Below, one piece after another: positions 7,902-54,430 of a stretch of 64,000 nucleotides of DNA (the first letter of the stretch is position 1; every line of letters starts with the position of its first letter). The stretch spans positions 42,634-106,633 of the forward strand of contig MFEL01000008.1 in NCBI GenBank assembly GCA_001777575.1, read 5' to 3'. The notes below the pieces were generated by a model that was not told the DNA's origin, made no database searches, and saw only the letters and a list, made by a program, of their open reading frames with translations. The DNA is from Candidatus Doudnabacteria bacterium RIFCSPHIGHO2_01_FULL_46_24. Lineage in GTDB: Bacteria > Patescibacteriota > Doudnabacteria > UBA920 > O2-02-FULL-48-8. The position numbers and the translations under genes are program-made.

Positions 7902-8658
7902 ACCATTTTTTTGCCAATTTGGAATAACCCGGGTTTAATTTCGTCACTTCCAAGATTATTTTTCCGCTTTTGCCAAGCTGGCTTTGAATTTCCGGATGCC
8001 GTTTGAGGTAACTTTCAAGCTTTCCAGACAGCAAATCTTCCTGCGCGATTATCTTAACATTTTTGGGCAAACCAGCGCGAATTTGCTTTCGAATCAGCCC
8101 GTAATGGGTGCAGCCCAGAATCAGGGCCTGGATGCGATTGGCAATAAGCGGTCTGAGGTAAATTTTTAACGGCTCAACCGTGCGGTTGAGGCGTTGAGCT
8201 TCGATTAGGTCCACCAGCGCGGGAGTAGCAACGGCAAATAGTTTAACGTCGGGATCAATATTCTCTAATTCGCGGCGGTATGCGCCAGAGGCCACGGTCT
8301 GGCGCGTGCCTATGAGCCCCACCCTACGGATGTTTCCGATAGTTTCCACGGTCGGCCGGATGATTCCCAAAATTTTCCTGCCCTTAAATCGCGAATGAGG
8401 TAAATAATCTTGCTGTAACTTTCGCAGCGCTTCTGACGAGACGGTATTGCAAGCAATGACCACCAGCGCGCAATCCTGCTTGAACATGTGCTCAACGGTC
8501 CTCACCGCCAATTTATAAATCTGAGCTTGGGACTTATTGCCATACGGCAAATTTTTGGTATCACCCAGATATAGATAATCGTATTGGGGCAGTTGGCGGG
8601 CAAGCTTCCTCAAAATCATCAACCCGCCCAGACCCGAGTCAAAAATTCCAATCTTCAT
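7861..8658 (-). CDS. murI: Glutamate racemase
   Basis: MKIGIFDSGLGGL and ACNTVS motifs. Confidence 0.85.
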   Translation of the reverse strand: MKIGIFDSGLGGLMILRKLARQLPQYDYLYLGDTKNLPYGNKSQAQIYKLAVRTVEHMFKQDCALVVIACNTVSSEALRKLQQDYLPHSRFKGRKILGIIRPTVETIGNIRRVGLIGTRQTVASGAYRRELENIDPDVKLFAVATPALVDLIEAQRLNRTVEPLKIYLRPLIANRIQALILGCTHYGLIRKQIRAGLPKNVKIIAQEDLLSGKLESYLKRHPEIQSQLGKSGKIILEVTKLNPGYSKLAKKWFGKHVHLSASNNR

Positions 8659-12620: not shown

Positions 12621-12721
12621 GTTACGTGTGACGTGATTCGTGTTACGTGGCCTTAATTATACCATAAATCAGTTAAACACCTCAACCGGGTTGAGGTGTT
12701 TAACGGGCTTATGTTAGTCAA

Positions 12722-19529: not shown

Positions 19530-19977
19530 GTAGTTGTCATTCCCAGAGCCGACGACTTCGTCAAGACTCTGGTCGAGTGCCGACTCGAACGCGAGGCGCA
19601 AAAACTCATCGCCAGAGCAATCCACGACAGGGTCGCCGTTCTCGCACGGCAGGCGGGCATGATCTGATCTAGGTTTCATGCCCAGATCACCGCCTCAAAC
19701 GCGAGGAGAGGATGGCTAAGTAAGCTTCCCTCCTCGCCCCCCTTTTTCCCCTTACTCCATTTCTCTCCTTACTCCCTTTACACCCATTATTCCCCTTTCT
19801 GAGGTTTTTATTTTACCCTAAAGGACACCCCTAAAGGACACCAGGACAACCCAATCAATACTTCACTGCACTGAAGCAGTGAAGTATTGCGTTGTCCAGA
19901 TTGACAGGAAACTTTAATGCGCCAGGCGCCTGGCGCAATAAAATGTTGCTTTAATATTAAATAAACGAAATTTTAAA

Positions 19978-19998
19978 GGCTCAACCGGCGGTTGAGCC
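19978..19998 (-). terminator. Hairpin (ggctcaacc/ggttgagcc) downstream of the rseP stop
   Basis: A 9-10 bp GC-rich stem 8 nt after the rseP stop, followed on the minus strand by a U-rich stretch. Confidence 0.45.
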
Positions 19999-20005
19999 TT
20001 GGCCT

Positions 20006-27752: not shown

Positions 27753-28175
27753 CTAAGTGCTTTCATCCAAAGCCTCATTGACTAGCTTATCCGCCAGTTT
27801 ATTTTTTTCCCGCGGAACATGCTTATATTCCACGCTCAGAAACTTGTTCGAAAGCTTAAAAACCTCGGCAGCCAAAAGTTTCAGTTCTTGCTCTTTTACT
27901 TTGTACTTGCCGGTCAGCTGGCGCACCACCAACTCTGAATCCAAAAAACAGGTTAATTCTTTGGCTTCTAAACTTTCAGCTTCTTTGAGGCCTCGGATCA
28001 AAGCCTGATATTCAGCCTGGTTATTTGTGGCATTGCCAATATGCTCGCCTACTTGGCGCAAGGGCTTCTCGCCAACGCCATAAATCACCACCCCAATCGC
28101 CGCCGGCCCGGGATTCCCCCGCGCCCCGCCATCCGTGTAGATTGTAATCTTATTTGGCATAATTTTTAGTGTCAA
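27753..28175 (-). CDS. rnhA: Ribonuclease HI
   Basis: ITIYTDGGARGNPGPAAIG N-terminus and the DEDD catalytic residues. Confidence 0.8.
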   Translation of the reverse strand: MTLKIMPNKITIYTDGGARGNPGPAAIGVVIYGVGEKPLRQVGEHIGNATNNQAEYQALIRGLKEAESLEAKELTCFLDSELVVRQLTGKYKVKEQELKLLAAEVFKLSNKFLSVEYKHVPREKNKLADKLVNEALDEST

Positions 28176-28408
28176 AGATGCCCTTTGACACTAAATCTTG
28201 GTTCAACGAGCCGGAACGCCCGATTTTTTGCAATTTTCTGATTGAATTTACAGGTCTGGCCATAAATTACGTAACAAATTATATAATTATCTCTATAATT
28301 ATAGTTTAGCATATTTGTGCTATAATCTCTCTGCCCAAAGCCTTGCTGCCCCACAGGCCCATGTGTCTGCCGGCGCGTTTTTTTTATTCCACTAAAAACA
28401 GAGTCTTT

Positions 28409-29090: not shown

Positions 29091-30821
29091 TTCCAAATTC
29101 GTATTGCCTTTCCAGGAGTTTTCTTCGAGTTCATAGACTGCGTCAATTTTGGTTCCAGAAACAAGTTTATCAGAAAGAAAACCTTGGCCAAAGGCAATGG
29201 CTCCGATAAATTTGCCGGCAAGTTTAAGCCGCATCTTCAAGTGCTTGCTGCCGTTGCCTACCGTCCGGCACTCCACGACTTCCATGCCACAGGAAACGAA
29301 TTTTGGTTTGGGGTTATCCACGCCGAACGGCGCCATTTTTTTTATGTAAGCGTAATTTTCCGCAGTAATGTCTTCTGCGGCTAGTTCGCAATCGACCTCT
29401 AACACCGGCGGCTCGAATTCGGCGCTGACAGTTTCCACGTATTCCAGAAGCTTCTGGTGAAAACTTGGGATGTGTTCGGAGGCCAAAGTGAACCCGGCGG
29501 CCTGGGTGTGCCCGCCGAACCGCACCAGCAAATCCTTGCTGGAATTAAGTGCCGCCACTAAATCAAAATTTCCAATTGAGCGGCCGGAGCCGGTAGCCAA
29601 TAATTCTTCCTTGCGCAAAATCAGCACCGGCCGGCCGTATTCTTCCACCAGTTTGCCAGCCACCAGACCCACTACTCCTTTGGGCCAATCGGCGCCATAA
29701 GCCAGCAGAATTTTCTTGTCCGGCATCAGCGAAAGCTGCTCGCGGGCTTCGCTTAACACCTGCTCTGTCAACGTCTGCCGTTGCTTGTTCAAATCGTTCA
29801 ACTCCAAGGCCAGCCGGCCGGCCTCGGCCTCATCTTCGCTAACCAAAAGCTTGAATGCCAAATCCGCATGCTTGATCCTTCCCGCGGCATTGATGCGGGG
29901 CGCCAAAATAAATCCCAATGTAAAAGTGTCAAAGGGAATCTTTGACACCTGGGAAACGTCCAAAAGCTTCCTAATTCCAAGCCAGCGGGTTTTGGCTAAA
30001 ACTTTGAGGCCAAATGAAACCAGAATGCGATTCTCTCCGGTTAGACTTTGACAATCCGCCACAGTCCCAATGGCTACGAGGTCGAGCAGCCATTTTTCCC
30101 AGCCAGGCGCTACTCCATTCCCGCTGAGAATTCGCTGAGTTGAGCGGGAATCTTGCTGAGATCCCCGATTACTTGCCTGACCCTCCTTTCGGGGATGGTT
30201 TGGGTCTGTGGAGAATAAAGCCTGCACAAGCTTATAAGCGACGCCTACGCCTGTTAAAAATCGAAACGGATAATTGTCCGTTGGATTCTTAGGATTGATC
30301 AAAGCGTAAGCCCCTGGCAATTCCCCTGTGACCTCGTGGTGGTCCGTGACGATCAAATCAATCCCCAGCTCCTGGCAAAGTTTGGCCTCGGCAACTGAAT
30401 TGGTCCCGCAATCAACCGTGATGATCAGCTTACTTCCGCTTTCCGCAATTTTTTTGACAGCATCGCTGTTGACGCCATAACCTTCCGCGAATCGGTCCGG
30501 AATATAACAATCAATGACGGCGCCAAGTTTTTTTAGCGCCAAAAAAACCACGCTGGCGGCGGTAATCGCATCCGCGTCATAGTCTGCGTAAATCGTGATT
30601 TTTTCCTGATTTGTTATTGCTAATTTGACACGCTCCACTGTCTTCTCCATCTCTCGAAACAAGAACGGGTCATGAAGTTTGTAATACTCGGGCTCCAAAA
30701 AACCCCGGATTTCCTCAGCCTCAAACAGGCTGCGCAAGTTGAGCAATTTTAAGACAAACGCCGGATATTCCGGCAGGTTTGGCTGTTGCTGAGGCAAATT
30801 TTTCAATTTCCACTTTTTCAT
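29064..30821 (-). CDS. recJ: Single-stranded-DNA-specific exonuclease RecJ
   Basis: DHH (ITIYADYDADAITAAS) and DHHA1 motifs. Start set at ATG 30821, directly after the receiver gene's stop. Confidence 0.85.
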   Translation of the reverse strand: MKKWKLKNLPQQQPNLPEYPAFVLKLLNLRSLFEAEEIRGFLEPEYYKLHDPFLFREMEKTVERVKLAITNQEKITIYADYDADAITAASVVFLALKKLGAVIDCYIPDRFAEGYGVNSDAVKKIAESGSKLIITVDCGTNSVAEAKLCQELGIDLIVTDHHEVTGELPGAYALINPKNPTDNYPFRFLTGVGVAYKLVQALFSTDPNHPRKEGQASNRGSQQDSRSTQRILSGNGVAPGWEKWLLDLVAIGTVADCQSLTGENRILVSFGLKVLAKTRWLGIRKLLDVSQVSKIPFDTFTLGFILAPRINAAGRIKHADLAFKLLVSEDEAEAGRLALELNDLNKQRQTLTEQVLSEAREQLSLMPDKKILLAYGADWPKGVVGLVAGKLVEEYGRPVLILRKEELLATGSGRSIGNFDLVAALNSSKDLLVRFGGHTQAAGFTLASEHIPSFHQKLLEYVETVSAEFEPPVLEVDCELAAEDITAENYAYIKKMAPFGVDNPKPKFVSCGMEVVECRTVGNGSKHLKMRLKLAGKFIGAIAFGQGFLSDKLVSGTKIDAVYELEENSWKGNTNLELKIVDIKL

Positions 30822-37666: not shown

Positions 37667-38089
37667 TCAGCGATTCGAAATTAACGAATGGACATCCGAA
37701 TGATCCGAAACTACAAAATCCGGATTAAGAACCCTCTTGGGTTTAATAAAAGAGCCTCTGAAATTTACTATCAAACCAAGTTCTAAATTTGCCGCTTTAA
37801 GGTACCTCTGCATTTGGATATAATCTTCTTTGGTTATAAAAGTCTTTGCTTTGAAATCTACGAAAATTTTGCGCTCGACAAAAAAATCTACTTTGTTGCC
37901 TCTCGGCGAATTTTTGTTCAGTTTACTAATTTCGAACTCTCGCTCATATTCCCACTTTTCTTCTTTAAGTAACTCTTCAAATCTATCGCCATACTGCTTT
38001 TCTCTACAGAAACGTCCGAGCTCTTTCGCTACTCTAAAGCATAAACCACTAATCTTATAAGATAATTTTGCTTCAACTATTTTTGGCAT
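37667..38089 (-). CDS. GxxExxY family protein
   Basis: LSYKISGLCFRVAKELG…YGDRFEELL…ELGLIVNFRG matches the GxxExxY signature. Confidence 0.8.
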   Translation of the reverse strand: MPKIVEAKLSYKISGLCFRVAKELGRFCREKQYGDRFEELLKEEKWEYEREFEISKLNKNSPRGNKVDFFVERKIFVDFKAKTFITKEDYIQMQRYLKAANLELGLIVNFRGSFIKPKRVLNPDFVVSDHSDVHSLISNR

Positions 38090-38171
38090 ATTCGGATGCG
38101 CGCTTTCGTAGTGCGCCTTTCGGATACTATTCGTGGCATTCGAATGTCCAATTCGTGGCTTCGTATCGCTG

Positions 38172-38381
38172 TCAAAACTTGGCTCCCGCCTTCAGCACAT
38201 CAAATATGCTCGGCAACTCCGTGGCCTTGCCTTTCTGCTTGCAGATGGCGTAAACCAGATGCCACTCGCATTCCAGATTTTTTTCGTTGGCAATGGCCTT
38301 GGTCCCGCGCCAATACAGAAATGCCAGGGCAAACAGGACTAACAGAATCAATTTTGATCTCATGCGTTTTTTGATATACAT
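38172..38381 (-). CDS. Small membrane protein (69 aa; one TM helix plus ~40-aa soluble tail), second gene of the AbrB-like operon
   Basis: ATG at 38381 is 2 nt after the stop of the upstream 59-aa ORF. AAAGGAG lies upstream. Confidence 0.4.
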   Translation of the reverse strand: MYIKKRMRSKLILLVLFALAFLYWRGTKAIANEKNLECEWHLVYAICKQKGKATELPSIFDVLKAGAKF

Positions 38382-38383
38382 AA

Positions 38384-38563
38384 TTATTTTCTCCTTTTTG
38401 TTTTTGCATCCCGGATGACAATCGCGCCCGGGATTTTTTTGACCAGCAGCCGCTGCCGCTCGCGCCACTTAAGCTGCCGCAGCATTTCCGCGGGCAGCAA
38501 CACTCCCAAAGAACTTCTGCCAATCTTAGTTAGCTTGCGAATATTATTTATCGGCCTGGCCAT
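38384..38563 (-). CDS. AbrB/MazE/SpoVT-family swapped-hairpin protein (59 aa; antitoxin-like or transcriptional regulator). Missing from the ORF track because it is under 60 aa.
   Basis: Manual translation gives MARPINNIRKLTKIGRSSLGVLLPAEMLRQLKWRERQRLLVKKIPGAIVIRDAKTKRRK. The TKIG-S-LGV-LP…G-I-I segment is the classic SpoVT/AbrB fold signature. Confidence 0.55.
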   Translation of the reverse strand: MARPINNIRKLTKIGRSSLGVLLPAEMLRQLKWRERQRLLVKKIPGAIVIRDAKTKRRK

Positions 38564-38586
38564 ACGTATACGTAAACCACGTGGTT
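38564..38586 (-). promoter_or_regulatory. Two perfect palindromes (acgtatacgt, aaccacgtggtt) abutting the start codon of the AbrB-like gene
   Basis: A 10-bp and a 12-bp perfect palindrome within 25 nt upstream of the ATG at 38563. Confidence 0.45.
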
Positions 38587-38592
38587 TAATAC

Positions 38593-39408
38593 TTACCTGA
38601 CGAACATAAAAGTGGAAATAATTTGGTCAAAAACTCTAGCATACTCATCCTGCTGCTCTTGCGTCAAATCGCCTCGGATAGTCATAGATATTAGCATAAC
38701 TCCGGTTGTTTTCTCAATAAATAAATATTCCATAGCCTTGTTTGCGGCGAATCCAGAAACCGCCTCGATCTCTCCGCGGCATCGCAGCGCCTTCGCTCCG
38801 CTGATTGTCAAGGACTTGGGATTGCTGCAATAAGACAGCGAGTATTGCGTCATATTTGTCCCCACGTCTACAGGTCCAAACGGAATCTTTAGCCAGGCGT
38901 AATAATCTTTCAATTCTCCGGCATACTTTAGTGTATCGAATCCGGATTCTTTTGTGCTTAGAACAAGATATTTATCTTTACTGCCGTATTCATCAGTCCT
39001 GTCCACCCAATCGCTGGGGTATTCGAATCTGAACCTGAAATCATAAAACGGGCTAAGATAGGTCTGCCAGTTCGCAGCTTCGCCTGCTCCGACCGAAGCG
39101 TCGGAGTCAAGCTGATTTGTGTCTTCAAACCAAGCGGCCGGGCTCCATCCTGGAGGCAAACAGGAATTATAAAACTTTTTAGTCTCGCCATCATTATTTA
39201 CTGCCAAAATTTCTTTTCTTGAACAATCGTTCCCAAACGTCCAACCATATTGCCAATAAAAGACGCCAGCGACAATGCCGGCAAAAACCAGCCCCAAAAA
39301 CACGTAGCCTAAAACCATGTGGCGGCTAAGCCAATTCTTATTTGGCGGCAAGGTCGGCACTGGTTGGTTGCTTATATTTTTCTGTGACACTCCCTGTTGA
39401 TTTTCCAT
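38593..39408 (-). CDS. Hypothetical secreted/membrane-anchored protein (271 aa)
   Basis: Single N-terminal TM helix. Promoter-operator copy 1 lies directly upstream. Confidence 0.5.
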   Translation of the reverse strand: MENQQGVSQKNISNQPVPTLPPNKNWLSRHMVLGYVFLGLVFAGIVAGVFYWQYGWTFGNDCSRKEILAVNNDGETKKFYNSCLPPGWSPAAWFEDTNQLDSDASVGAGEAANWQTYLSPFYDFRFRFEYPSDWVDRTDEYGSKDKYLVLSTKESGFDTLKYAGELKDYYAWLKIPFGPVDVGTNMTQYSLSYCSNPKSLTISGAKALRCRGEIEAVSGFAANKAMEYLFIEKTTGVMLISMTIRGDLTQEQQDEYARVFDQIISTFMFVR

Positions 39409-39420
39409 ACTTCCGTTCTA

Positions 39421-39444
39421 CATTCATACACGACTGTATGAATG
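39421..39444 (-). promoter_or_regulatory. Operator copy 1: palindrome cattcataca-cgac-tgtatgaatg just downstream of a TATAAT -10 box
   Basis: A 32-bp segment (39420-39451) is identical to 39956-39987. The minus strand reads TATAAT-ACATTCATACAGTCGTGTATGAATG. Confidence 0.6.
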
Positions 39445-39453
39445 TATTATAAA

Positions 39454-39945
39454 TTATAGCTGTAAATCTCTGCTTGCTGAACGCTGCTTAAGTTTCTTTG
39501 TGATAAGACGACTAACTTCCGGAATGCCCTCGGTGACCAAATCCGCCAAAAACGTTTCAGCCGGCATTTTTCTCCGAACTCGCCTTTCCAGGATCGTCTG
39601 TCTCTCCTCGCGTTTTCTCTGGAATTTATTTTCCAAATCAACCAATTTCTGATGAACCTTCTTTAATCCTTCGCCCCGGGTCATCAGCGTATTATTAACG
39701 GTTGTGATTGTTCTGGCGGTAACTTTCAGGGCATCCATGATCTCTTCGTATGTCTGACCATCGATGAGGCGCCTAGCGATTTCTAACCGCTTAGCAAACA
39801 TCTTATATTCTGTGTGTGTAAATAAATCCTTAAACAGCAAACGAACATCCTCCTTGGAATCCATTAAAGTAAAGGCTGACCATAAATTGTTCACATAATG
39901 GCCGAAGTGCTGCGGGTCTAAATGTAATCTTGATAGTTTTGTCAT
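39454..39945 (-). CDS. TrpR-like (YerC/YecD family) helix-turn-helix regulator
   Basis: ARRLIDGQTYEEIMDALKVTARTITTVNN matches the Trp-repressor-like YerC/YecD HTH. Confidence 0.6.
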   Translation of the reverse strand: MTKLSRLHLDPQHFGHYVNNLWSAFTLMDSKEDVRLLFKDLFTHTEYKMFAKRLEIARRLIDGQTYEEIMDALKVTARTITTVNNTLMTRGEGLKKVHQKLVDLENKFQRKREERQTILERRVRRKMPAETFLADLVTEGIPEVSRLITKKLKQRSASRDLQL

Positions 39946-39956
39946 TTTTTATTTCA

Positions 39957-39980
39957 CATTCATACACGACTGTATGAATG
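39957..39980 (-). promoter_or_regulatory. Operator copy 2 (identical palindrome) overlapping the promoter of the TrpR-like gene
   Basis: The minus strand reads gcgcTATAAT-acattcatacagtcgtgtatgaatg-tgaaataaaaaATG. Confidence 0.6.
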
Positions 39981-39990
39981 TATTATAGCG

Positions 39991-40965
39991 CTAACTATTG
40001 GCTTTTACAATATTGGGAGGAGTATTGCCTTTCAGTGCCGCAATGATATTTTCTGCGGCCACGCGGCTCATGTTGTCGCGGGCTTCGATGGTGGCGGAGG
40101 CGGTGTGCGGCGTGATGACAATATTCTCAAGTTCGGCTAATCCCGGCGTTAATTCCGGTTCATGCTCCCAGACATCTATGCCGGCGGCAAAGATGTCCCC
40201 TTTTTTCAGGGCATCGCGGAGGGCTGCCTCATTCACCACCGGGCCACGGCTGGTGTTGACGAAAATTGCGGTTTTTTTCATCAGCTCAAACTGCGCCGCG
40301 CCAAACATATGGCGCGTAGAATCCAGCAGCGGCACGTGGACCGAAACAAAATCCGAATTTTTCAAAAGTTCTTCCAGCGTGCAAAACTTGGCGCCCAAGT
40401 CTTTTTCAATCTGGTCATTGGGTTTTTGGTCATGATATAAAATTTTCATGCCAAAGCCTTTAGCCGCCCTTTCGGCCAAAGCCGCGCCGATCCGGCCGGT
40501 GCCGACAATTCCAAGAGTTTTACCAAACACATCCTGGCCCAGCAACAAAAACGGCTGCCAGCCGGTATATTTGCCGGCGCGGGAAAACCGGTCTGATTCC
40601 ACGATCCGCCGACCCGCAGCCAGCATCAGGCCAAAGGCATGGTCTGCCACTGAACCGGTCAAGATGTCTGGGGTATTTGTGACCAAAACGTGTCGCGCTG
40701 CCGCATCCTTGATGTTGATGTTGTCGTAGCCGACCGCGTAATTGGCCACGATTTTCAGCTGCGGTCCAATAGTGTCCAAAACAACACCGTCAATTTTATC
40801 CACCAGTTGGGAAAGCAAGGCGTCACAGCCAGCTGCTTCCAGCATCAATTCCTCGCGCGACAGGGGCCGGTCAAGCGGCGAAATTTTTACTTCGTGCCCG
40901 GCTTGCTTAAGCATATCAATCCCCACTTGAGGAATTTTTCGAGTAACAAATATTTTCATAAGCAT
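39991..40965 (-). CDS. D-isomer-specific 2-hydroxyacid dehydrogenase (glycerate/hydroxypyruvate reductase-like)
   Basis: NAD-binding GxGxxG (GIVGTGRIG) and the catalytic R/E/H triad region. Confidence 0.8.
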   Translation of the reverse strand: MLMKIFVTRKIPQVGIDMLKQAGHEVKISPLDRPLSREELMLEAAGCDALLSQLVDKIDGVVLDTIGPQLKIVANYAVGYDNINIKDAAARHVLVTNTPDILTGSVADHAFGLMLAAGRRIVESDRFSRAGKYTGWQPFLLLGQDVFGKTLGIVGTGRIGAALAERAAKGFGMKILYHDQKPNDQIEKDLGAKFCTLEELLKNSDFVSVHVPLLDSTRHMFGAAQFELMKKTAIFVNTSRGPVVNEAALRDALKKGDIFAAGIDVWEHEPELTPGLAELENIVITPHTASATIEARDNMSRVAAENIIAALKGNTPPNIVKANS

Positions 40966-41062
40966 TTGGTCTATCCCCGACTTGATCGGGGATCCACTAC
41001 AGCTATTAATACCATTTGGTTTTAATTATCGAAGTGGATCCCAAATTAAATTTGGGATAGGC

Positions 41063-42037
41063 TCATATCTCCCTCGCCCTAAACTTTGAGTGCTTTCTTA
41101 AATAATTTTCAATCTGCGCCTTGGTCTGCAAACCTTTATGCGGCCCGACGTGCATGACGACATTGCCGCCGTTTACAGTGCCCCAAGCCATGGCTTCGGC
41201 TACGCTGCGGCCGTAAAACATGGCGGCAGTGAAAGCCGAGCCATACGCGTCACCAGCTCCGGTAGCCTCCACTTTTGGCCCTACAAATTCCTCTAGATAC
41301 CAAACCTTACTCGATCCATTGGAAGCGTAGGAGCCATCCCTTCCATCTGTAATCACGGCGATTTTGGCGCCCAGCTTGTGCAAGCCCTTGAGCAGGGTTT
41401 TTACGTTTTTCGTGTTTTGCTTCAATACCAGCTGCGCTTCTTCGTGGTTGAGAAATAAAATTTCCGTGTGCTTATAAATTCCATTCAGCTTATGCCCCAT
41501 TCGGATTTGAAAAGTTCCTGGGTTAAACGCCAGCTTAACGCCCTTGTGCTTTTCCAAAAAATTCTCAAATTCTTTGTGAAATTTTTCCGTCCCTGCAGCC
41601 ATGGAGGAAAAATAAACCCATGGTGCGTCCAACCTGCTCGGCAATCGGTAGTTAAACTTGTTGTGCTTAATCAGGATTGTCCGCTCGCCGCGGAAAGCCA
41701 GGACAAAATGAAAATTGGTCTGTGCCTGCTTGTCCACATGGATAAATCCGGTATCCACGCCCTCCCGTTTTAGTTCGGTAATGATCAGCTTACCCTGGTT
41801 GTCGCTGCCGACCGAGGTGATAAAAGCATTTTTCATGCCAAGCCGCGCCGAGCCCACGGCATTGTTGGTGGAATTGCCCGCCGGCAGCATAGTCAACTTC
41901 TCATATGGAATCTTATCCGCGTAAGAAAGCTCCAGCTTGCAATCCGTATGATCCACCGCGCAATGCACGCTCGCCTCGTGCAATTCAATAAAAGCGTCAA
42001 TCGTGCAATCGCCGATGGAAACTATGTCGTATTTCAT
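41063..42037 (-). CDS. PfkB-family carbohydrate kinase (ribokinase-like)
   Basis: GAGDAYGSAF anion-hole motif. N-terminal GG motif. Confidence 0.8.
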   Translation of the reverse strand: MKYDIVSIGDCTIDAFIELHEASVHCAVDHTDCKLELSYADKIPYEKLTMLPAGNSTNNAVGSARLGMKNAFITSVGSDNQGKLIITELKREGVDTGFIHVDKQAQTNFHFVLAFRGERTILIKHNKFNYRLPSRLDAPWVYFSSMAAGTEKFHKEFENFLEKHKGVKLAFNPGTFQIRMGHKLNGIYKHTEILFLNHEEAQLVLKQNTKNVKTLLKGLHKLGAKIAVITDGRDGSYASNGSSKVWYLEEFVGPKVEATGAGDAYGSAFTAAMFYGRSVAEAMAWGTVNGGNVVMHVGPHKGLQTKAQIENYLRKHSKFRAREI

Positions 42038-42709: not shown

Positions 42710-42759
42710 AAAATACATTGTATTGTATAGAAATTGAAAAAAAATAAAATAAGCTCATC

Positions 42760-42789
42760 AACCTAAATGTGCCATGGCACATTTAGGTT
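42760..42789. promoter_or_regulatory. Perfect 30-bp palindrome aacctaaatgtgccatggcacatttaggtt
   Basis: Centred on CCATGG. Shares the 14-bp core tgtgccatggcaca with the palindrome at 43414-43433. Confidence 0.55.
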
Positions 42790-42811
42790 AACTGACTTTA
42801 TCTGCTTGGTT

Positions 42812-43387
42812 TCAAACTTTTAATCCGAATTTTTTGAGCAAATCGTTTTGGAAATCCAGTTCCTGGACAATGGCAATCCTGACATATCGGTCAATTTCAT
42901 AAATTTCTTTCAAAAAATCTACTTCGTCTTCGCAAGGGTATGGGCATGCCCAGACGCTTTTTTGCATAGGATAAAACCCTATTTCCTTAAGCTGGCGAGT
43001 AAAATAATAGCTGTTTCGCTTGAACTGTTTGGGAATATCAAACATCACCAGGCGCCATTTTTTGTCCCAGGTTTTTTGCGGCTTAATTTGCATCTTGTCC
43101 ATTTTGAACTTCAAAAGTTTCTGCTTGCCATTCTTGGTCATTTTAATGACTGTCTTATGCCTTTCCTCGGTTATCGAAATCAGGTTCTGGTCTTCCATGC
43201 TCTTAAGTGAGCGCCGGATCTGCCACGGTTGATAACGTTTTTGTGTTTTGCCCAAAAAAGGAGCCAAGGCCATGGGCAGGCCAGGCAAGACCGCAACGGC
43301 AACCACAAACCCGGCTGCCGCGATTACGGTTAAAATCATTTTTATTATTTCCGCCTTGCTCCGTTTCTCTTTTTCCACTATTTGCAT
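42812..43387 (-). CDS. PaaX-family transcriptional regulator-like protein with an N-terminal TM helix
   Basis: WDKKWRLVMFDIP…TRQLKEIGFYPMQKSVWACP aligns with the PaaX WDGKWLLLL…KKQLIWQGFGALAPSLMASP segment. A winged-helix-like segment precedes it. Confidence 0.55.
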   Translation of the reverse strand: MQIVEKEKRSKAEIIKMILTVIAAAGFVVAVAVLPGLPMALAPFLGKTQKRYQPWQIRRSLKSMEDQNLISITEERHKTVIKMTKNGKQKLLKFKMDKMQIKPQKTWDKKWRLVMFDIPKQFKRNSYYFTRQLKEIGFYPMQKSVWACPYPCEDEVDFLKEIYEIDRYVRIAIVQELDFQNDLLKKFGLKV

Positions 43388-43413
43388 ATTTTTTAAATTT
43401 ATTGAGCCTACCT

Positions 43414-43433
43414 ATTTGTGCCATGGCACAAAT
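43414..43433. promoter_or_regulatory. Perfect 20-bp palindrome atttgtgccatggcacaaat, 27 nt upstream of the PaaX-like gene start
   Basis: Same CCATGG-centred core as the 42760 palindrome. Putative autoregulatory operator. Confidence 0.55.
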
Positions 43434-43498
43434 GGGTCAACGAGCATGCTCAAATCTACCATTAAGCCTCAATTAACCTAAAAATTATTAATTTCTTG

Positions 43499-53053: not shown

Positions 53054-53131
53054 GCAAACATTATAGCTAAAAATTACAAATAAAAAAAGGCTTAAATAAG
53101 CCATTTCTAACACCTCACATGGATTGAGGCG

Positions 53132-54430
53132 TTAGAAATTTTCGTAGTCCCGCATGATCATCTGGGACTTGACCTGATTGATAATCTCAATCACTACGGC
53201 CACGACGATCAAAATGCCAGTGCCTCCAAGAGTCAAAGTGGAAGTTTTGGTGAATGATTGGATGATATAAGGCAAAACAGCGATCAAGCCCAAAAACAGC
53301 GCTCCAACCAAGGTGATGCGGTTTAGGACCTTGTACAAAAACTCCGCGGTCTGTCGACCCGGCCGCAGTCCCGGCACAAAGCCGCCCTGTTTTTGGATAT
53401 TGTCGGCGATTTCATCGGGATTAAACACGATCGCCGTGTAGAAGTAGGTAAAAGCGACCACCAGCAAGAAATACATGATACCGTAATAAGTCTGGTTCTG
53501 GAAAAAATCGTTGATGCTTGCGGCAAACGAGGCAATCTGCGGCGTGCGAGACTGTGAAAAGAAATTGGCAATAAGTCCCGGAAACAACAAAATCGAAATG
53601 GCGAAGATGATGGGTATCACACCGGCCTGGTTGACCCTCAGCGGCAAATGAGTGCTGACTCCGCCGTAAAGCTTATTGCCCCGCACGCGCTTGGCGTAAG
53701 AAACGGGGATATTGCGCTGAGCCTCGGTAATACCGACGATTGCGGCGATGACGAGAAACGCCACAGCCAAAAAGCCGACAGCGGTGACGACACCGGTGGA
53801 AGACAGCTGGCCAGTCGAGGTCGTGAGATTAACATAACCCTGCTGGATCGCCGGAGGCAATTGAGAAACAATGCCGGCGAAGATAATCATGGACACGCCG
53901 TTGCCCAATTTATACTCGGTAATCAATTCACCCAGCCACAAAAGCAGCATACTGCCGGCAGTGATGGATAATAACGCCACAAACCACTGGAAAGCCGAAA
54001 ATTCGGTAATGAGGTCGCTGCCGCTCGTGCGCGTAAGCAAGATGATCGTGCCATAGCCTTGCAAAACGGTCAGCGGGACGGTCAGCCAGCGCGTATATTG
54101 GTTAATCTTCGCCCGACCGGCCTCGCCGCCCTCTTTGGCCAACTCTCCCAATTTCGGGACAATGATAGTCAGTAACTGCATGATGATGGATGCAGTAATG
54201 TATGGCCCCACCCCGAGCATGGCCACGGAAAAATTCTGCAGACCGCCGCCGGAGAAGATGTTGAACAACCCGAACAGCTGATTGGAATTAAGCAGATTTC
54301 TCAGATTGGCGAGTTCAACGCCGGGAATCGGAATGTTAGCCAGGATCCTGGTCCCAATCAAAAGCAGAGCGACGAACAAAATTCTGTTCCGCAAATCTTT
54401 CACTTTCCAAAGTTGTGATAGTCTGGACAT
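53132..54430 (-). CDS. secY: Preprotein translocase subunit SecY
   Basis: Start reassigned to MSRLSQLW… (ATG at 54430, 1 nt after the rplO stop). 10-TM SecY fold. Confidence 0.9.
   Translation of the reverse strand: MSRLSQLWKVKDLRNRILFVALLLIGTRILANIPIPGVELANLRNLLNSNQLFGLFNIFSGGGLQNFSVAMLGVGPYITASIIMQLLTIIVPKLGELAKEGGEAGRAKINQYTRWLTVPLTVLQGYGTIILLTRTSGSDLITEFSAFQWFVALLSITAGSMLLLWLGELITEYKLGNGVSMIIFAGIVSQLPPAIQQGYVNLTTSTGQLSSTGVVTAVGFLAVAFLVIAAIVGITEAQRNIPVSYAKRVRGNKLYGGVSTHLPLRVNQAGVIPIIFAISILLFPGLIANFFSQSRTPQIASFAASINDFFQNQTYYGIMYFLLVVAFTYFYTAIVFNPDEIADNIQKQGGFVPGLRPGRQTAEFLYKVLNRITLVGALFLGLIAVLPYIIQSFTKTSTLTLGGTGILIVVAVVIEIINQVKSQMIMRDYENF

Follow-up and report, generated by a model that had tools for sequence, protein, structure and literature searches.

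Identical palindromes on both sides of a long-form TrpR/YerC-like gene in Candidatus Doudnabacteria as the probable private operator of the enclosed protein

Doudnabacteria are uncultured organisms, and the DNA analyzed here was derived from Candidatus Doudnabacteria, an uncultured groundwater bacterium. The window is the whole stretch of 64,000 nucleotides (nt; contig MFEL01000008.1, positions 42,634 to 106,633 of the forward strand), and all positions are counted from its first letter. A minus-strand gene for a 163-amino-acid (aa) protein of the TrpR/YerC type lies in this window between two copies of a 26-bp palindrome, one before its start codon and one directly after its stop codon. We investigated the relationship between the palindrome and the enclosed protein, and the palindrome is likely to be the private operator of that protein. 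The features of the locus, including the next open reading frame (ORF), are as follows.

38593..39408, minus strand: 271-aa ORF with a hydrophobic stretch near its N-terminus, candidate co-regulated neighbor
39420..39445, no strand: downstream palindrome copy, between the regulator stop codon (8 nt away) and the ATG of the 271-aa ORF (11 nt away)
39446..39451, minus strand: TATAAT hexamer at the downstream palindrome; a second, overlapping TATAAT includes the stop codon; no good -35
39454..39945, minus strand: 163-aa long-form TrpR/YerC-like protein, putative DNA-binding (Pfam PF01371)
39472..39672, minus strand: C-terminal extension, residues 92-158, two long predicted helices (H92-119 and H128-158)
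39676..39717, minus strand: codons of the predicted recognition helix, residues 77-90 (AlphaFold2 model)
39712-39714, minus strand: AGA codon of Arg78, putative specificity determinant (mutual information with half-site positions 4-6)
39956..39981, no strand: upstream palindrome copy, 26 bp, ACATTCATAC-N6-GTATGAATGT, proposed autoregulatory operator, 10 nt 5' of the ATG at 39945
39982..40010, minus strand: sigma-70-like promoter, TTGTAA (40010-40005), 17-nt spacer, TATAAT (39987-39982), 10/12 matches in the promoter scan

An earlier note on this DNA had described an exact 32-mer on both sides of the regulator gene, and this was confirmed in every detail. The sequence ACATTCATACACGACTGTATGAATGTATTATA was found at 39420-39451 and at 39956-39987, and no third match was present in the window at up to three mismatches. 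Zero matches to the 32-mer were obtained across 100 dinucleotide shuffles of the window. Searches of the window with the palindrome core and with the half-site, the latter allowing one mismatch, led to no place beyond the same two. A scan of the window for the architecture AC-N4-WTAC-N6-GTAW-N4-GT returned the two known copies and nothing further. As these looser searches revealed no further copy, the regulon cannot be defined within the window. When read on the minus strand, both copies are TATAAT-ACATTCATACAGTCGTGTATGAATGT, so that the perfect palindrome downstream of TATAAT reported in the note was borne out by the sequence, as was the distance of 10 nt to the ATG of the regulator. The arms are 11 bp in the upstream copy (39956-39966 and 39971-39981) and 12 bp in the downstream copy (39419-39430 and 39435-39446), and they pair perfectly around a 4-nt center.

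The promoter TTGTAA-17-TATAAT abuts the upstream palindrome, and the predicted transcription start therefore falls within the palindrome. At the downstream copy, the promoter scan reported no promoter, and the TATAAT found there is absent from the downstream copies of the other five genome loci with the same palindrome type (L001, L003, L006, L010, and L015; L numbers denote the loci compared). The palindromes are predicted to form stable hairpins of -13 to -18 kcal/mol (z -3.2 to -5.0). A scan for intrinsic terminators was negative at both window copies, where the A+T-rich stems are followed on the sense strand by GAAATAAAAA or AGAACGGAAG with no U-tract. A scan of 38000-41000 against Rfam 15 gave a single match, which was unrelated and sub-threshold (E 0.43, at 38362-38441).

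The TrpR/YerC-like identity given in the earlier note was upheld by domain, profile, and fold comparisons. The 163-aa ORF matched the Pfam Trp_repressor family PF01371 with 46 bits against a cut-off of 27, over residues 21-100 and profile positions 6-86 of 88. The NCBIfam model yecD_yerC (TIGR02531) scored 40.7 bits, just below its cut-off of 42.2, and TrpR (TIGR01321) scored 25.9 bits, short of its cut-off of 67.25. A profile built from 60 homologues identified the YerC-like proteins 3FRW, 3G1C, and 3KOR as the nearest solved sequences in the PDB (E 5e-10 to 2e-7, residues 15-110). The AlphaFold2 model was all-helical with a mean predicted local distance difference test score (pLDDT) of 79, and the helix-turn-helix was formed by helices 66-73 and 77-90. 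The top Foldseek matches were 3FRW, 3KOR, and 3G1C, followed by 1TRO (E. coli TrpR), with a probability of 0.96-1.0 and a template modeling (TM) score of 0.53-0.62 relative to the target; their E-values were only 0.09-1, as can be anticipated when one chain of an intertwined dimer is modeled alone. Judged by these sequence comparisons, the protein is related to HisR/YerC and is not an orthologue of YerC/HisR or TrpR.

The C-terminal extension is absent from the TrpR/HisR proteins of about 100 aa, and the solved relatives stop near profile residue 106-110. Foldseek gave no informative match for it; it may be an oligomerization module. Homologues at E <= 0.001 numbered 263. All those listed carry PF01371, and the sources that give names say Candidatus Doudnabacteria; most of the 120 homologues listed are 155-165 aa long. 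A library-wide profile search found 427 clusters (50% identity) at E <= 1e-10, mostly of 130-165 aa. By these sequence criteria the protein belongs to a long-form, lineage-rich branch of the TrpR/HisR family. A tblastn search with all family members detected no second TrpR-like paralogue and no prmC in the window.

We compared the window with 31 homologous Doudnabacteria loci from species-representative genomes, giving 32 loci, and with four metagenome loci. A palindrome was present 1-53 nt 5' of the start codon in 30 of the 32 loci, and a second copy was found 0-8 nt past the stop codon in nearly all loci whose sequence reaches that far. The sites share the architecture AC-N4-(A/T)TAC-N6-GTA(T/A)-N4-GT, with TAC and GTA found without exception and AC and GT conserved to at least 90%. 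Searching for this pattern gave 85 sites in 367 kb, against 0.05 expected by chance. The half-site types differ between loci and include ACATTCATAC, ACTGCAATAC, ACTTGCTTAC, ACTATAATAC, ACTATATTAC, and ACCATCATAC, and within each locus the variable bases agree in both arms and in both copies. Changes on both sides were seen in 9 of 13 symmetric pairs, and 86.6% of the cells were complementary, compared with 70% after shuffling and 18-46% after sliding. In the six genomes with two paralogues, each paralogue has a different palindrome.

In a syntenic orthologue group (L013, L020, L024, and L025), the site drifted step by step through ACTGCAATAC, ACTGTATTAC, ACTCTATTAC, and ACTATAWTAC, with joint changes in all four half-sites. 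Two loci with an upstream flank similar to that of the group, L023 and L026, have ACTATATTAC and ACTATAATAC, respectively. The stepwise drift in the syntenic group points to co-evolution in place and not to repeated insertion. As a separate observation, two different family-type palindromes stand in tandem 5' of one TrpR-like gene in L017 (1784-1859) and L018 (2914-2988). They are of the ACTATAATAC and ACTCTAATAC types and are about 50 bp apart, and additional sites of the first type occur 3' of the next downstream gene. The tandem sites suggest cross-regulation by a second paralogue.

Across the 32 loci, the association between residue 78 of the protein and the palindrome type was near-perfect. 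The residues and their half-sites are given below.

Arg78: AC(A/C)TTCATAC
His78: ACTG(C/T)A(A/T)TAC
Lys78: ACTT(G/A)CTTAC
Asn78: AC(C/T)AT(C/T)ATAC
Small residues at 78: ACT(A/C)TA(A/T)TAC

Within the predicted recognition helix, residue 78 is the second position, and its counterpart in the alignment with 3FRW, 3G1C, and 3KOR is an Ala at the start of the ATIS helix. We take it to be the equivalent of Ala80 in TrpR, a position at which operator specificity was altered in E. coli genetics. Among all variable protein columns, residue 78 had the top mutual information with the site, with z values of 9.4 for half-site position 4, 7.0 for position 6, and 5.5 for position 5; the next best column, residue 81, pairs with half-site position 3. 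Because all columns share one phylogeny, the ranking of residue 78 is evidence for direct read-out. In a helix-masked neighbor-joining tree, which is weakly resolved for so short a protein and was used only qualitatively, the R, H, and K types each appeared in several clades. The proposal of the earlier note that the palindrome is the operator of the regulator is thus very probably right, judging from the covariation of residue 78 with the site.

In our own promoter scan of the other loci, most upstream palindromes were overlaid by promoter-like elements, and each palindrome type had its characteristic register. In the ACATTC type the -10 hexamer abuts the site, and the register of the window was repeated in L001, L010, and L028. 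In the ACTTGC type the -35 hexamer lies within the left arm and the -10 at the right edge. The ACTGCA type has a -35 TTGCAG within the right arm and a TATAAT 17 nt further on, 7-10 nt before the ATG (L012, L016, and L031), and in the ACTATAATAC type the TATAAT lies within the arm. Such overlap fits steric repression of the regulator's own promoter. The sequence, the architecture, the conservation across the family, the covariation, and the promoter overlap are observations; binding, repression, looping or roadblock action, and any effector are inferences.

The proposed mechanism is as follows. With its helix-turn-helix, a dimer of the 163-aa protein would contact the two 10-bp half-sites (ACATTCATAC). 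Half-site positions 4-6 would be discriminated by residue 78 at the N-terminal end of the recognition helix, and contacts to the invariant AC and TAC bases would come from conserved parts of this helix. The -10 hexamer and the start codon flank the upstream site, so that a bound dimer would silence the regulator's own promoter and thereby cause autoregulation. The downstream copy, packed against the stop codon, would be a second site for the same protein. It is proposed as a second operator that most likely acts as a roadblock or operator, blocking transcription that leaves the regulator gene or enters the next gene. In addition or instead, it may serve as the anchor of a loop, in which the extra C-terminal helices would let it cooperate with the upstream site at a distance of about 530 bp.

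The earlier note had read the layout as an autoregulated repressor plus one target operon. The first part is consistent with the upstream copy between promoter and ATG, and the second part was not supported. The downstream copy is found family-wide at the 3' end of the regulator and is kept where no co-directional gene starts close by (L014, L015, and L022). The missing TATAAT at the downstream copy of the other five same-type loci, described above, likewise speaks against a single target operon. Further copies occur in other genomes, some of them within ORFs, and the set of sites is thus wider than the regulator itself plus its neighbor. The operon that the note had called AbrB-like contains a 59-aa ORF whose MazE/AbrB-type matches were all sub-threshold in Pfam and NCBIfam. 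No match to Pfam or NCBIfam was obtained for the 271-aa ORF; a similar membrane protein is encoded 3' of the regulator in L001.

A second regulator in the window has the same layout. It is a PaaX-like protein of 191 aa (42812-43387, minus strand; Pfam PaaX_M), which is unrelated to the TrpR-like protein. Its gene has palindromes at both ends (42758-42791 and 43410-43437), which are related to each other, with the cores CCTAAATGTGCC-AT-GGCACATTTAGG and ACCTATTTGTGCC-AT-GGCACAAATGGGT. After the downstream one come a T-rich tract and a YdjM-like gene in convergent orientation, an arrangement that again does not fit one target operon. Four PaaX-like homologues (L053-L056, 47-58% identity) are likewise flanked on both sides, each by a different palindrome of its own. 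The presence of the downstream copy without a close co-directional gene, together with the bracketing of PaaX-like genes, indicates that bracketing is a property of regulator genes and not of a particular target.

The genes downstream of the TrpR-like regulators are diverse. As named by reading of their sequences, they include a membrane protein (window and L001) and PurN-like, enolase-like, deformylase-like, M13-peptidase-like, GltX-like, LepA-like, and, in seven loci, glycosyltransferase-like genes, as well as a conserved 40-aa lipoprotein. No his genes were present among the neighbors inspected. The 40-aa lipoprotein-like ORF, MKKIIL..LLAAGC.KV.L....P.SP.ESYEELPK, was seen in L013 (3538-3660), L020 (3531-3653), L024 (3532-3654), and L025 (3539-3661). 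It stands directly 3' of the TrpR-like gene and the downstream palindrome, and the gene after it is convergent and encodes an acidic protein.

A metagenome scan for the exact palindrome returned 19 stretches. Four contained pairs 530-550 bp apart around TrpR-like genes of 54-61% identity, and two were low-complexity chance matches. The other 13 held stand-alone exact copies with the GTCG/CGAC center kept and no TrpR-like gene in the stretch. The copy number was low: a 496-kb contig had two copies, and two further contigs, of 138 kb and 62 kb, had a single copy each. Several stand-alone copies lie in short co-directional intergenic gaps, for example before rplA and between an FBPase-like (fructose-bisphosphatase-like) gene and an aldolase operon, as named by sequence reading, and several have extra palindromic flanks. 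In L049, the stand-alone copy is inside a longer terminator-like stem with a T-tail; one such stem lies 3' of rplT. A family-type palindrome was also found in the 3' end of a glycosyltransferase ORF in L009, where comparison with the L008 orthologue showed no indel. A second glycosyltransferase gene begins 83 nt 3' of this site, and its orthologue stands directly 3' of a TrpR-like gene in L012 and L016. The sequences of the dispersed sites fit a small regulon with sites co-evolving with the regulator.

Several observations weigh against the palindrome as a simple operator of the enclosed protein. The covariation statistics handle phylogeny solely by ranking columns within one alignment. The neighbors are diverse housekeeping and envelope genes with no common pathway and no obvious effector. 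In L015 and L022 there is no nearby co-directional gene start, and an inverted repeat with a T-run follows instead; in L014, the palindrome is followed by a T-run. The half-site centers are about 16-17 bp apart, wider than in classical TrpR operators. The copies of one locus have a conserved 6-nt center, and the sense strand of this center is rich in pyrimidines in 16 of 18 asymmetric center types (TTTCTC, TTCCCC, TGGCCC, and TATATC are examples), and such a strand-biased, conserved center is not predicted by a symmetric dimer on duplex DNA. Finally, three of the stand-alone exact copies lie in mid-ORF, in frame and remote from start codons. Their hosts are prmC, a WecB/TagA-like gene (by sequence reading), and a membrane protein gene, at the following positions.

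L044, 872-897: in-frame exact copy in prmC
L039, 119-144: in-frame exact copy
L050, 172-197: in-frame exact copy

These copies encode ..IHTRLYECE.. or ..FIHDCMNV.., and the element is open in two of its three reading frames. In prmC, the copy matches a 9-aa segment without counterpart in most homologues. In the prmC of L051 (about 60-66% identity), a diverged palindrome of the same architecture, GCACTCATAA-GTCGAC-GTATGAGTGC, stands at the same place (about 540-569) with symmetric changes at positions 1 and 4, and the prmC of L052 has weak remnants only. The diverged palindrome in the closest prmC homologue indicates that the site is old and maintained rather than a recent insertion into prmC. 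Sites in the middle of genes are not explained by promoter control and suggest roadblock action.

Operators of the same family have been described. TrpR and HisR (YerC) were reported to bind 20-bp palindromes with a 6-bp center, about half of the hisR genes have a candidate autoregulatory site, and the operators are cacTTTA-N6-TAAAgtg for HisR of Firmicutes and TGTAcTnGTnnACnAgTACA for TrpR (PMC9413887). The protein studied here shares with them the PF01371 family and a palindromic operator of two half-sites around a 6-bp center, which is the geometry of the inner 20 bp of our site; at the sequence level, the 10-6-10 palindrome overlapping a promoter also resembles this type of repressor and operator. 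The differences are considerable. Our protein has 163 aa with two extra C-terminal helices, whereas HisR/YerC proteins have a single domain of about 100 aa and regulate genes of his biosynthesis or transport, and the known members have fewer than 100 aa. The site spans 26-28 bp and not 20 bp, several paralogues occur per genome with a private site each, and a second site is present at the 3' end of the gene. The neighbors are envelope and housekeeping genes and not genes of amino-acid biosynthesis, and no effector is predicted.

Repressor genes with operators on both sides are also known, namely lacI (O3 and O1) and lambda CI (OL and OR). The O3 operator at the 3' end of the lacI gene is reported to mediate autoregulation by a roadblock (PMC3711431), and lambda CI is reported to link operator sets about 2.3 kb apart by looping (PMC5880393). 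These systems resemble ours in having operators on both sides of a repressor gene. In our case, unlike lacI and lambda CI, the regulator gene alone stands between two identical single palindromes, which are about 530 bp apart and would act by looping or roadblock, and the layout is common to a whole paralogous family and to PaaX-like regulators. Mycobacteriophage L5 gp71 binds stoperators, many repressor sites in short intergenic spaces and some within genes, which block the elongating polymerase and not initiation; they are asymmetric 13-bp sites, orientation-dependent, in a phage genome. An analogous action would account for the intercistronic and intragenic copies seen here, whereas our sites are symmetric 26-bp palindromes of low copy number in a cellular genome.

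A wider rule may lie behind these layouts, which we regard as possible and rather doubtful. In Doudnabacteria, and perhaps in other members of the candidate phyla radiation (CPR), each small regulator, TrpR-like or PaaX-like, would be placed within two copies of its own site. These copies would serve as protein-dependent transcription boundaries or loop anchors, as opposed to one operator per promoter. Conserved sites within ORFs, such as that in prmC, would be elongation roadblocks, and the TrpR-like family would branch into orthogonal regulator and site pairs by a simple code of residue 78 and half-site positions 4-6. In a still stranger variant, the palindromes would spread as tiny mobile units recognized by the protein.

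The palindromes could instead function as RNA or single-strand hairpins in intercistronic processing, stabilization, or termination, with the TrpR-like protein as a mere neighbor. The stability of the stems would agree with such a role, and so would the position of copies directly past stop codons and between co-directional genes, sometimes in palindrome-gene-palindrome-gene-palindrome runs (L008, L017, and L018). T-runs or longer T-tailed stems at some copies (L014 and L049) and the pyrimidine-rich centers of the sense strand point the same way. However, a hairpin leaves unexplained why each paralogue has a private sequence and why this sequence tracks residue 78. The mismatches in the arms are mostly not of the G-T type and include G-G, C-C, T-T, and A-C; a bias toward G-U was looked for and no enrichment was found. 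These mismatches favor a site in double-stranded DNA over a stem in RNA. The TATAAT of the window would start transcription within the left arm, and the hairpin would be missing from the regulator mRNA. The center is flipped between copies or lineages in L003, L014, and L017, and the window copies have no U-tract, no terminator call, and no Rfam family. We therefore consider the hairpin explanation unlikely.

The palindromes may also be the ends or recombination sites of a small mobile or cassette unit, such as a REP/RAYT system (repetitive extragenic palindromes with their associated tyrosine transposases) or the dif-like 11-6-11 sites of pdif modules, and the stand-alone copies would then be derived insertions or excision footprints. 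A gene between direct repeats of a 10-6-10 site with identical centers has the appearance of such a unit, as do the 13 stand-alone exact copies on other contigs, several of them with extra palindromic flanks. The in-frame copies with their open frames, and the coincidence of the prmC copy with the 9-aa insertion, are of the same kind. The resemblance to REP/RAYT (REPtron) extends to a gene flanked by its own class of palindromic repeat, paralogue-specific classes, and dispersed stand-alone copies. However, no transposase or recombinase is present in the unit. The protein consists of a helix-turn-helix and further helices, Pfam and NCBIfam gave only helix-turn-helix families, and no HUH/Y1 nuclease domain of IS200/IS605-like transposases was seen in the all-helical model. 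Only a few copies occur here, compared with tens to hundreds per genome for REP. The resemblance to Xer/dif pdif modules is architectural only (10-6-10 against 11-6-11, with identical centers). Gene neighborhoods are preserved across deeply diverged genomes, and the sites, which overlap promoters, change in step with a recognition-helix residue without leaving their places. In addition, the intragenic site of L009 arose without an indel, and the bracketing of unrelated PaaX-like regulators speaks for regulators with their own sites and not for one mobile element. A mobile unit is accordingly as improbable as the hairpin.

A chance duplication or a generic high-copy repeat without specific role was excluded by the shuffles, the architecture scan, and a layout conserved in about 35 loci, and the sparse copies (two in 64 kb, two on the 496-kb contig, and 13 stand-alone elsewhere) are not those of the generic repeat that the earlier note had considered.

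The reading of the palindrome as the private operator of the enclosed protein has consequences beyond this locus. Our literature search found nothing on transcription-factor sites in Doudnabacteria, and nothing on the bracketing layout in CPR, Patescibacteria, or Doudnabacteria. TrpR/HisR-type repressors are a known kind; as judged from sequence, the new elements would be a lineage-specific long-form family, private and co-evolving 26-bp palindromes that bracket the gene, a candidate one-residue code, and few dispersed sites. The family offers testable regulator-operator pairs, with about 10 natural specificity variants of one helix-turn-helix scaffold and a single candidate specificity residue. 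The predicted regulon members include glycosyltransferases, the conserved 40-aa lipoprotein, and prmC. If the reading is true, the family would be a natural set of orthogonal repressor/operator pairs and a case study in the co-evolution of duplicated regulators and their sites. Both the bracketing, which is also seen in PaaX-like regulators, and the conservation of in-frame sites within genes may be signs that these very compact genomes use roadblocks or looping for regulation.

Other palindromes were noted during the analysis. Palindromes rich in G+C, with the form CCCTCTCC(C)-N-GGGAGAGGG, were seen repeatedly, in L004, L005, L013, L015, and L028 and in an in-frame prmC insert in L044 (segment encoding PPHPGPLPQGEREG), and they may be a separate family of short palindromic inserts. 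In the window, two related palindromes 1.7 kb apart, TTTAGTGTCAAAG-atgcc-CTTTGACACTAAA and AAGTGTCAAAG-ggaat-CTTTGACACCT, are located at 28165-28195 and 29924-29950. The first is close to the beginning of an RNase H-like minus-strand ORF and lies about 250 nt 5' of a 75-aa ORF, which had no Pfam match, and an overlapping PIN-domain ORF; the second is inside a 600-aa ORF resembling recJ. An imperfect inverted repeat with 44-nt arms, 73% complementary, was found at 40971-41060 between a 2-hydroxyacid dehydrogenase gene and an upstream ORF (41063-42037), and it includes the shorter perfect stems ATCCCCGA..TCGGGGAT and ATCCCAAAT..ATTTGGGAT. Palindromes with a CCTCAAC/GTTGAGG or GCTCAACC/GGTTGAGC core are present at 8168-8195, 12670-12706, 19976-20000, and 53103-53139 of the window, and these may represent another repeated site or a terminator family.

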